Below are positions 364 through 16,918 of a stretch of DNA of 64,000 nt, one piece after another; within the stretch, counting starts at the first letter, position 1; every line of letters begins with the position of its first letter. The notes beneath the pieces are model-generated. The model worked only from the letters and a program-made list of their open reading frames with translations, was not told the DNA's origin and ran no database searches. Made by a program: the position numbers and the translations under genes. Location of the stretch: the NCBI RefSeq assembly GCF_003334255.1, contig NZ_QOWU01000018.1. One strand, written 5' to 3'. The DNA is from Escherichia coli (GTDB lineage: Bacteria; Pseudomonadota; Gammaproteobacteria; Enterobacterales; Enterobacteriaceae).

Positions 364-967
364 CCCGGTGTGTGCAATATACGAAAAAAAAGCCCGTACT
401 TTCGTACGAGCTCTTCTTTAAATATGGCGGTGAGGGGGGGATTGACTCGCTTCGCTCGCCCTGCGGGCAGCCCGCTCACTGCGTTCACGGTCTGTCCAAC
501 TGGCTGTCGCCAGTTGTCGAACCCCGGTCGGGGCTTCTCATCCCCCCGGTGTGTGCAATATACGAAAAAAAAGCCCGTACTTTCGTACGAGCTCTTCTTT
601 AAATATGGCGGTGAGGGGGGGATTGACTCGCTTCGCTCGCCCTGCGGGCAGCCCGCTCACTGCGTTCACGGTCTGTCCAACTGGCTGTCGCCAGTTGTCG
701 AACCCCGGTCGGGGCTTCTCATCCCCCCGGTGTGTGCAATATACGAAAAAAAAGCCCGTACTTTCGTACGAGCTCTTCTTTAAATATGGCGGTGAGGGGG
801 GGATTGACTCGCTTCGCTCGCCCTGCGGGCAGCCCGCTCACTGCGTTCACGGTCTGTCCAACTGGCTGTCGCCAGTTGTCGAACCCCGGTCGGGGCTTCT
901 CATCCCCCCGGTGTGTGCAATATACGAAAAAAAAGCCCGTACTTTCGTACGAGCTCTTCTTTAAATA
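364..967. repeat. Tandem direct repeat array, 181-bp unit x about 3.3 copies, immediately downstream (in transcription direction) of serX
   Basis: Identical sequence recurs with period 181 (e.g. tggcggtgaggggggg at 425, 606, 787 and in the tRNA at 968); the identical ORF-track proteins at 370, 551 and 732 confirm the period. Confidence 0.95.
927..954 (-). terminator. Intrinsic terminator of serX (8-bp stem, GAAA loop, T8 on minus strand); copied in each repeat unit at 746-773, 565-592, 384-411
   Basis: Minus strand reads gctcgtacGAAAgtacgggc followed by tttttttt directly after the tRNA CCA end. Confidence 0.7.
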
Positions 968-1055
968 TGGCGGTGAGGGGGGGATTCGAACCCCCGATAC
1001 GTTGCCGTATACACACTTTCCAGGCGTGCTCCTTCAGCCACTCGGACACCTCACC
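968..1055 (-). tRNA. serX: tRNA-Ser (anticodon GGA)
   Basis: 88-nt reverse complement GGTGAGGTGTCCGAGTGGCTGAAGGAGCACGCCTGGAAAGTGTGTATACGGCAACGTATCGGGGGTTCGAATCCCCCCCTCACCGCCA; long variable arm, encoded CCA. Confidence 0.95.
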
Positions 1056-1249
1056 AAATTGTCGTTCCTGTCTTGCTGGAACGGGCGCTAATTTAGGGAA
1101 ATCATGACCTGAGGTCAACAAACTTTTTGAAAAAATCGCGCGTTTATTCAAACTTCAATCAATGTGTGGTTTTAATAAGCGAAATCTGCTTTTTTTGCCA
1201 CCGACCACGGATTTGTTATGCTGGTGGCCTTTGTAGATCATAACGATAA

Positions 1250-6599: not shown

Positions 6600-7353
6600 G
6601 ATGAAACCCCGCTTTTTTTATTGATCGCACACCTGACAGCTGCCTCTAAAATAGAAGCACCAGAAGTACTGACAGATGTTGCACTGCTGTGTGTAGTAAT
6701 AAATCAGCCCTAAATGGGTAAAATATAAAACTAATGGATTACATCTGATTTCAATCTAGCCATTACAAATCTTAAATCAAGTGTTAAACATGTAACTAAA
6801 TGTAACTCGTTATATTAAAATGTTAACCTTAAGGTTTTATTAAGTTTAGAAATGATAGAAAAGTTGTACATTTGGTTTTTATTGCACAATTTTAAAAAAT
6901 CATACAAATGGTGATAACTTACTAATAATGCATATAAAAAATATTTCGGTGTAGTCCTTTCGTCATGTAAAACGTTCTTGTTTTTTCTCCACACCTCCGT
7001 GGACAATTTTTTACTGCAAAAAGACGAGGTTTGTCACGGCTTGTGCGCAAGACATATCGCAGCAATCAGCGACGGGCAAGAAGAATGACTGTCTGGTGCT
7101 TTTTGATAGCGGAAAACGGAGATTTAAAAGAAAACAAAATATTTTTTTGCGTAGATAACAGCGTATTTACGTGGGTTTTAATACTTTGGTATGAACTAAA
7201 AAAGAAAAATACAACGCGCGGGTGAGTTATTAAAAATATTTCCGCAGACATACTTTCCATCGTAACGCAGCGTTAACAAAATACAGGTTGCGTTAACAAC
7301 CAAGTTGAAATGATTTAATTTCTTAAATGTACGACCAGGTCCAGGGTGACAAC
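6600..7353. promoter_or_regulatory. Divergent csgD-csgB intergenic control region (csgD promoter and long 5' leader, csgB promoter)
   Basis: 754-bp AT-rich spacer between divergent csgD and csgB start codons. Confidence 0.85.
6781..6806 (-). promoter_or_regulatory. OmpR-type binding site in the csgD promoter
   Basis: Minus-strand sequence GTTACATTTAGTTACATGTTTAACAC matches the csgD OmpR box as I recall it; sits about 180-210 nt upstream of the csgD ATG. Confidence 0.55.
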
Positions 7354-16820: not shown

Positions 16821-16918
16821 CCTGATGCGCTACGCTTATCAGGCCTACATCGTTCCTGCAATTTATTGATTTTGCAAGACTTTGTGGATCGGATAAGGCG
16901 TTCACGCCGCATCCGGCA
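16821..16918. repeat. REP (repetitive extragenic palindrome) elements downstream of opgH
   Basis: gcctgatgcgctacgcttatcaggcctac and ggataaggcgttcacgccgcatccggca are canonical REP units. Confidence 0.8.

Follow-up and report, generated by a model that had tools for sequence, protein, structure and literature searches.

The 181-bp tandem array that lies behind the tRNA gene serX in Escherichia coli is very probably an RtT-type tRNA-trailer repeat of this locus, that is, a diverged relative of the repeats found at tyrT. The array was analysed in a window of 64,000 nucleotides (E. coli RefSeq assembly GCF_003334255.1, contig NZ_QOWU01000018.1), in which it occupies the strand of serX. The Rfam model for RtT (RF00391), which was derived from the tyrT repeats, gives 46.3 bits for every one of the three bodies of the array, both when searched locally and when the whole window is scanned. 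With a gathering score of 45 the margin is narrow at 1.3 bits, and the variant distal unit of strain MG1655 scores under the threshold. Every unit is closed by an exact copy of the 3'-terminal 19 nt of the tRNA including CCA, as is the case in the RtT family. In addition, the serX core contains segments that mimic the two T-stem strands of tRNA-Ser, and it can form a closing stem with the pseudo 3' end.

The serX array is already known, as it is present in the K-12 reference and is labelled automatically as RtT sRNA. An equivalent array of 3.4 copies with 99% identity is found in MG1655 (NC_000913.3), where the interval from ycdU to serX carries no annotation in the curated record, and the NCBI pipeline places one to four "RtT sRNA" features beside serX in many RefSeq E. 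coli genomes. The view taken in a preliminary description of this DNA, that the arrangement would be a known tRNA-locus structure and not a new system, is borne out by the RF00391 matches, the MG1655 array and these RefSeq labels. No literature on the serX array itself was found among the papers searched, and papers mentioning RtT restate the 1991 work on tyrT and call its function unknown. Our analysis adds a copy-number polymorphism that extends even to K-12 lineages, a contrast with tyrT in termination, the finding that no conserved peptide is encoded, and a wider spread of RtT-like units.

Structure of the serX array

Tandem Repeats Finder reports a single array at 364-986 with a period of 181, 3.4 copies, 100% matches and no indels. 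A repeat search of the window returned three copies of 261 nt, spaced 181 bp apart and 100% identical throughout, and a comparison by script found the three full 181-bp units and the 80-bp remainder to be letter-identical. Perfect periodic identity over 623 bp cannot be produced by chance. The preliminary description had given the period, the identity and the lack of mismatches correctly, and its copy number of 3.3 needs to be revised to 3.44, which amounts to four terminators, three complete bodies and four tRNA 3' ends, one of them real and three pseudo (Table 1).

Read in the sense of the tRNA, CCA is followed by a 44-nt trailer and then by a body of about 137 nt that closes with a pseudo 3' end. 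The parts of the 181-bp unit are the 19-nt end of serX, reaching from A58 of the T-loop to CCA, a copy of the serX trailer and terminator, and an RtT core of about 100 nt. The first body begins 45 nt from the CCA end of serX on the same strand, and successive copies of the tRNA end are separated by 162 bp without a conserved ORF. The repeated end reads AATCCCCCCCTCACCGCCA in the sense orientation and tggcggtgagggggggatt on the plus strand, and its recurrences, which had been placed at 425, 606 and 787, are exact over all 19 nt. The palindrome caactggc/gccagttg, also noted earlier as a constituent of each unit, is present in all three bodies.

Table 1. Coordinates of serX, its repeat array and the parts of the array in the window
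Feature	Position	Strand	Basis
Promoter-like site upstream of serX (TTGACC, 17-nt spacer, TAAATT)	1090..1118	(-)	Consensus scan alone
serX, tRNA-Ser(GGA)	968..1055	(-)	ARAGORN; Rfam tRNA 53.8 bits
Last 19 nt of serX, the first and real copy of the repeated 3' end	968-986	(-)	
Whole array, 3.44 x 181-bp unit, 100% identity	364..986	(-)	
Terminator 1, the native serX terminator	927..954	(-)	Fold -20.4 kcal/mol, z -6.4
RtT-family body 1, with pseudo 3' end 787-805 at its end	787..923	(-)	Rfam RF00391 46.3 bits against a gathering score of 45; fold
Internal hairpin CAACUGGC/GCCAGUUG of body 1	859..878; repeats at 678-697, 497-516	(-)	Repeat search and fold
18-codon frame MRSPDRGSTTGDSQLDRP, from the ATG of GGATGAGAA	847..903; repeats at 666-722, 485-541	(-)	Judged not coding
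Terminator 2, identical copy	746..773	(-)	Sequence identity
RtT-family body 2, with pseudo 3' end 606-624 at its end	606..742	(-)	Rfam RF00391 46.3 bits
Terminator 3, identical copy	565..592	(-)	Sequence identity
RtT-family body 3, with pseudo 3' end 425-443 at its end	425..561	(-)	Rfam RF00391 46.3 bits
Partial unit of 80 bp at the distal end, comprising a pseudo 3' end, terminator 4 (384-411) and the leader as far as CACACACCGGG	364..443	(-)	

Terminators and predicted transcription

The trailer hairpin is 16 bp long and consists of a core stem GCUCGUAC, a GAAA loop, the stem GUACGGGC and an extension of A/U pairs, after which U8 follows. A terminator hairpin with T8 had been described for every unit, and folding agrees with this, giving -20.4 kcal/mol with z = -6.4 at all four sites. 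A consensus terminator scan of the tRNA strand missed the hairpins that folding shows clearly, probably because the U-tract is taken into the stem by its A/U-paired extension. On the plus strand, the consensus scan flagged the trailer hairpin with a T-rich run as terminator-like four times. Terminator 1 is terminator-like on the plus strand too because of the A-tract upstream of it, and the serX trailer hairpins look bidirectional, that is, terminator-like also for the convergent gene ycdU.

The consensus scan found no promoter-like site inside the units, and the sole promoter-like site on the tRNA strand near the array is the one upstream of serX, at 1118-1090. As a strong terminator stands before the first body and after every pseudo 3' end, transcription of the bodies would depend on read-through. 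Under this model, most serX transcripts are expected to stop about 40 nt past CCA at the hairpin and U8, and the RtT bodies, which would be transcribed by terminator read-through only, are probably mostly silent. The second gene for this tRNA offers an informative comparison: serW possesses the same tRNA and the same trailer and terminator (-21.3 kcal/mol) without RtT, and RtT bodies are therefore not needed for making tRNA-Ser5. A requirement of the bodies for tRNA-Ser5 expression is ruled out both by serW and by the body-less alleles that occur naturally at serX.

Pairing of the T-stem-like segments

Covariation was assessed in an alignment (A1) of 29 diverse RtT units. When segment 1 is paired with segment 4 and segment 2 with segment 3, 91.6% of the cells are paired and six pairs are changed on both sides, and the alternative pairing of 1 with 2 and 3 with 4 gives 98.7% paired cells and four pairs changed on both sides. 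Both pairings beat 500 of 500 shuffles and all slid controls, on paired cells as well as on the covariation score. The two are mutually exclusive and equally supported, and the independent events behind them are few, namely three T-stem types and one further locus, L114. The compensatory change at L114 lies outside any tRNA copy, segment 1 there following a change in the acceptor strand of the tRNA. Within this alignment, complementarity of the T-stem-like segments is shown to be kept, in a manner that may reflect either fold and may act at the level of RNA or of DNA. Together, complementarity across tRNA types and conservation across genera would argue for some selected role for which the explanation as a trailer repeat does not account. 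A hammerhead-like reading of GAUGAGAA was dropped by eye, as its core does not fit.

Copy-number variation at serX

The preliminary description had raised the possibility that copy number varies at the serX flank, and across E. coli it does, from 0.44 to 4.44. The query consisted of the two flanks only (286 bp on the left and 714 bp on the right), which lie less than 1 kb apart in 2,081 of 5,426 complete genomes; this search would not join arrays of more than about 1 kb, and one row containing IS1 was left uncounted. In a systematic sample of these genomes, the gap between the flanks was 80 bp, equal to 0.44 copies and no body, in seven genomes, 261-263 bp (1.44 copies) in six, 441-442 bp (2.44 copies) in four, 623 bp (3.44 copies, MG1655 among them) in three, and 804 bp (4.44 copies, the K-12 derivative MC1061 among them) in two. 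A base-by-base check returned 804 bp (4.44 copies) for MC1061 and 80 bp (0.44 copies) for MB51. Strains without a body, as read from locus L131, keep just the 80 bp made up of the tRNA end and the native trailer.

Over the roughly 2,800 bases that were compared, the window and MG1655 differ at two, positions 521 and 561, both of which fall in the distal body. MC1061 carries the same two variants as MG1655 and one additional perfect unit, and three K-12 lineages were found to possess three different array alleles. Judging from this allele pattern, unequal homologous recombination most likely drives the variation in copy number: unequal exchange or gene conversion between 181-bp units, or between the 80-bp end repeats, would add, remove and homogenise copies. 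A deletion between the 80-bp end repeats would be the simplest explanation for the 0.44 allele. The recent unequal recombination suggested in the preliminary description fits these data, given the two MG1655 distal-unit substitutions that are absent in the window, the extra unit of MC1061 and the range of copy numbers. An assembly artefact or laboratory amplification is ruled out, as MG1655 and many independent complete genomes share the array. In practical terms, a perfect repeat of 623 bp can be collapsed by short-read assemblies, and array length is a fast-changing marker that separates even K-12 laboratory lineages.

Islands and other rearrangements at serX

In O157:H7, an island adjoins the real 3' end of serX and supplies its own terminator. 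At the far end of this island, 14 nt of the tRNA end (TGGCGGTGAGGGGG) are followed by the 80-bp partial unit and then by ycdU. This 14-bp core is the published direct repeat of OI-48 and the SRL PAI (PMC3064760), and it is present inside every pseudo end of the serX array. Three spare copies of the core used by P4-family integrases, along with a recombination hot spot, are likely consequences of the array, which in this respect offers a series of additional attachment cores at a site where islands are known to integrate. Other rearrangements were seen at the same locus. Strain AZ184 lacks the ymdE-ycdU segment, the end of dgcT lying 104 nt from serX, and its serX trailer contains the terminator and the truncated, diverged start of an RtT body; in E. 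coli B, IS3 interrupts the array. The serX unit has no match in a phage collection of 50,697 records, and its matches in a plasmid collection are mostly to chromosome-sized or non-mobilizable records, leaving a phage or plasmid origin of the unit unsupported.

Alternative explanations for the array

A working small-RNA array is an alternative that we consider unlikely. Read-through precursors would in this case be trimmed to the pseudo CCA, and the resulting RtT RNAs would mimic the T-arm of tRNA-Ser and its uncharged CCA end and titrate proteins that bind tRNA ends (e.g., in the stringent response), as has been proposed for the rtT RNA of tyrT. Such a role draws support from the annotated rttR of tyrT, whose 171 nt end exactly at the pseudo CCA, from the Northern signals given by RtT relatives in Actinobacillus (PMC4986893), from the complementarity of the four T-stem-like segments across tRNA types, including the compensatory change at L114, and from the folding of both the serX and the tyrT bodies below shuffled controls (z of -3.1 and -2.0 for the two bodies). 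It is difficult to reconcile, however, with the hairpin of -20 kcal/mol and U8 before every serX body when an internal promoter was not found by the consensus scan, with serW, where the same tRNA has no RtT at all, and with the presence of the body-less 0.44 allele in many natural E. coli; the covariation, moreover, comes from few independent events and fits both exclusive pairings equally. Another possibility is that the units are footprints of repeated site-specific integration at serX by a tRNA-targeting tyrosine integrase, where a small circular element or its decayed end used the tRNA 3' end as core and left one pseudo end per integration. We regard this as improbable: there is no integrase gene and no island DNA between the repeats, real serX islands look different, the duplicated block is 80 bp (19 nt of tRNA and 61 bp beyond) and not a short core, the core of the O157 island is 14 nt and not 19, and neither the phage nor the plasmid collection points to a mobile source. 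These points have to be set against the status of serX as a proven integration site whose 14-bp core is contained in the pseudo ends, the constant start of the pseudo end at A58 of the T-loop (19 nt) at serX, tyrT, tRNA-Lys and tRNA-Asp, which resembles a fixed crossover point, and the position of the array at the junction with the variable ymdE-ycdU segment.

It is extremely improbable that the repeats encode protein, whether as a Tpr-like basic peptide on the tRNA strand or as 137-aa frames spanning two units on the plus strand. The tpr frame of tyrT starts at an ATG within the conserved GGATGAGAA motif, and the serX units keep this ATG but stop after 18 codons, compared with 29 at tyrT; among related units it has a length of 5 codons in most tyr-type ones from other genera and ranges from 11 to more than 100 in ser-type ones. 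The Tpr-like frame is not a conserved protein because its length varies in this way across related units. Plus-strand frames of 83 to 137 aa are present, but with a period of 181 (3 x 60 + 1) the long ones change reading frame from one unit to the next, as expected of a stop-free repeat. Both kinds of frame are ruled out as proteins by non-conservation and by the 3n+1 period. Taken as an RtT-type trailer repeat, the serX array itself is ordinary and matters little, and the wider question concerns the RtT family, namely for what reason many bacteria retain, downstream of tRNA genes, a module that reproduces the T-arm and 3' end of the adjacent tRNA.

RtT-like modules behind other tRNA genes

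An exact-pattern scan with GGATGAGAANNNNCGNNNNNGGTNCGA, using one genome per species, found at least 120 loci. For 171 matches, among the matches listed, we took the closest tRNA gene that lies upstream within 1.2 kb in the same orientation, and 127 of these 171 lie 3' of a same-strand tRNA gene. Among the matches listed, the upstream gene was tRNA-Ser(GGA) in 61 cases, tRNA-Tyr(GTA) in 59 and tRNA-Ser(CGA) in two, with one case each for tRNA-Pro, tRNA-Lys, tRNA-Asn and tRNA-Asp and one uncertain tRNA call; the first motif match usually lies about 60 nt past the tRNA end. No upstream tRNA was present within the stretch examined for the other 44 of the matches listed, and inspection of their positions placed many at the start of a cut locus and some, as chance matches, inside genes. 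The number of matches expected by chance in the whole collection is about 35 by our estimate. The order tRNA-Ser(GGA), trailer and RtT is found in Escherichia albertii, Citrobacter, Enterobacter, Kosakonia, Pluralibacter, Trabulsiella, Phytobacter, Superficieibacter, Pseudescherichia and Intestinirhabdus, and the serX element must be old in the Enterobacteriaceae because this order recurs across so many genera.

In an Rfam scan of twelve distant loci, the gathering score was reached by the Sedimenticola locus only. It is conceivable, if doubtful, that RtT-like modules form a much wider class than the Rfam threshold captures, each retailored to the neighbouring T-arm and sharing a conserved role that has not been described. 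If this were true, candidate roles would include imitation of the uncharged tRNA end by an RNA that arises from terminator read-through, or participation at the DNA level in recombination specific to the T-loop.

RtT-like architecture was observed behind tRNA-Lys, Asp, Pro, Asn, Ser(CGA) and Tyr as well as behind tmRNA, in hosts that belong to distant phyla and include Alteromonadales. In Neptunicella the module follows tRNA-Lys and is tandemly repeated, and in Kangiella it follows tRNA-Asp, its body flanked by a terminator on either side as at serX. Marinobacterium has it downstream of tRNA-Pro and Sedimenticola downstream of tRNA-Tyr. It was also seen directly behind a tmRNA gene, and in metagenome bins assigned to Fibrobacter, Chlorobiales, Lentisphaera and Gastranaerophilales. 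The order of its parts is a segment complementary to the tRNA 3' strand, GATGAGAA, two T-stem-like strands, TTCGA, about 80 nt of hairpins, and the tRNA end from A58 to CCA. At the distant loci the segments match the local T-arm each time, and pseudo 3' ends, where retained, start at A58 of the T-loop. The module often lies beyond the tRNA's own terminator.

Comparison with known systems

A comparison of the repeats at serX and at the paradigm locus tyrT shows a common plan with several disparities. In K-12, the tyrT locus contains 3.1 copies of a 178-bp unit that closes with the 3' end of tRNA-Tyr, and rttR and tpr are annotated there, rttR as an RNA of 171 nt whose 3' end coincides exactly with the pseudo CCA, and tpr within rttR. 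There are four RtT matches at this locus, one of them between tyrT and tyrV, and their scores of 133-137 bits compare with 46 bits at serX. As at serX, the RtT repeats of tyrT and tyrV follow the 3' end of the tRNA gene directly and in the same orientation, form about three tandem units with a length near 180 bp, and have the last 19 nt of the tRNA including CCA at the close of each unit. A base-by-base comparison identified GGATGAGAAGC, CGACC, GGTTCGAC, CCCGNAGGGCGAG and the final AATCC...CCA as motifs common to both units. The minimum-energy folds predicted for the two bodies also follow a common plan, in which the 5' segment pairs with the pseudo 3' end as a closing stem, the two middle segments form a small hairpin, and there are internal hairpins and a free 3' tail. 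The T-stem-like segments themselves differ, being GAAGG/CTTC/AAGG/CCTTC at tyrT and GGGGG/CCCC/GGGG/CCCCC at serX, and in each case they match the T-arm of the locus's own tRNA.

The most significant disparity concerns the spacer, which forms a hairpin of -20.4 kcal/mol followed by U8 at serX and is unstructured at tyrT (-0.6 kcal/mol); a scan found no terminator-like sites inside the tyrT array. The overhang of the array is 80 bp at serX and about 25 bp at tyrT, and the tpr frame encodes a basic peptide of 29 aa at tyrT as opposed to 18 codons at serX. Also, rttR is annotated as an RNA product of tyrT, whereas an RNA product of the serX units would be hypothetical, and the two loci probably differ in whether their repeats are transcribed. 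Termination within the tyrT repeats is reportedly Rho-dependent according to older literature, which agrees with the unstructured tyrT spacer. The likeness to tyrT pointed out in the preliminary description thus holds for the unit length and copy number, the tRNA 3' end and the presence of tpr, but does not extend to a conserved Tpr-like frame at serX or to a hairpin terminator in the tyrT spacer.

Three further systems invite comparison. One is formed by RNAs from the 3' trailers of tRNA precursors (3' external transcribed spacers, e.g., 3'ETS-leuZ), which occur in single copy, precede the terminator and function through base pairing. An RNA from the serX bodies would likewise originate in the trailer of a tRNA precursor, but these bodies are situated beyond the terminator and mimic the tRNA end. 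With the bacterial VNTRs that are kept by unequal crossing-over, the serX array shares a polymorphic copy number and the homogenisation of units within a genome; unlike VNTRs of anonymous DNA, it is built from a module that has structure, is conserved phylogenetically and is linked to a tRNA gene. The ser'X pseudo-tRNA ends left by P4-family integrase islands at serX and serW (OI-43/48, SRL PAI) likewise repeat the tRNA 3' end in direct orientation on the downstream side of serX. Unlike these island ends, the copies in the serX array enclose no island or integrase, comprise 19 nt of the tRNA together with 61 nt of trailer, and recur at a strict spacing of 181 bp with an RtT core between them.

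Variation of the serX array among E. coli genomes

Two differences separate the window from MG1655 in the approximately 2.8 kb compared, and both of these, at positions 521 and 561, lie within the distal RtT body (the roughly 137-nt part of each serX unit). MC1061 retains the MG1655 variants and carries one additional perfect unit. An IS1 terminal inverted repeat occupies positions 1-77 at the edge of the window, where it breaks up ycdU; this gene is uninterrupted in MG1655 at the site of the IS1 junction. Strain YZ_2_2 has an IS1/ycdU junction identical to that of the window, yet its serX array has only 2.44 copies of the unit.

The array of strain ecMN1F (L003, 3062-3801) contains five RtT cores spaced at 179, 181, 180, and 181 bp; segments within the core imitate the T-stem strands of the adjacent tRNA. 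These spacings are uneven, and perfect homogeneity is thus not true of all arrays. In E. coli SCPM-O-B-8794 (L028, reverse strand, 6638-6744) the first unit spans just 106 nt and GGGGTTCGA is joined directly to ATCCCCCCCTCACCGCCA, giving a T-arm-like sequence without interruption; from its sequence, this unit looks as if an insert of about 80 nt had been lost.

The ymdE-ycdU segment is absent in AZ184 (L128, 2378-2481), leaving 104 nt between the end of dgcT and serX, and the serX trailer there consists of the terminator followed by a diverged, truncated start of RtT; the serX array therefore borders on a stretch that is variable. An RtT unit is interrupted by IS3 in the E. coli B strain BLR(DE3) (L127, 2072-2481), in which about 1.9 RtT units remain, ycdU is absent, and the terminator of the tRNA-adjoining unit is a perfectly symmetric A8/T8 structure of -23.2 kcal/mol.

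Other features of the window

The remaining Rfam matches in the window are, as expected, those usual for the corresponding region of K-12.

Other Rfam hits of the window that pass the threshold
Feature	Window position
ES056	6655-6746
ES036	16841-16883
PyrC leader	26012-26061
rne 5' UTR element	47796-48132
SraB	49993-50161

Comparison with other tRNA and tmRNA loci

K-12 serW (L129, 1754-1841) has the same tRNA, trailer, and terminator as serX and is devoid of RtT; CRISPR-DR4 repeat matches are found just past the serW locus. An RtT-like module directly follows the tmRNA gene at locus L122 (1140-1700), with segments matching the tmRNA T-arm. Outside the enterics, such modules also stand behind genes for tRNA-Lys, Asp, Pro, Asn, Ser(CGA), and Tyr; the loci belong to Neptunicella (L045), Kangiella (L118), and Marinobacterium (L006), and to metagenome bins from other phyla, assigned to Lentisphaera (L088), Fibrobacter (L107), Chlorobiales (L059), and Gastranaerophilales (L020). 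The modules behind these tRNA genes all score below the Rfam gathering score. A hairpin with the pattern AAAAT..C(T/C)GGA(A/G)..ATTTT is common to several of them.
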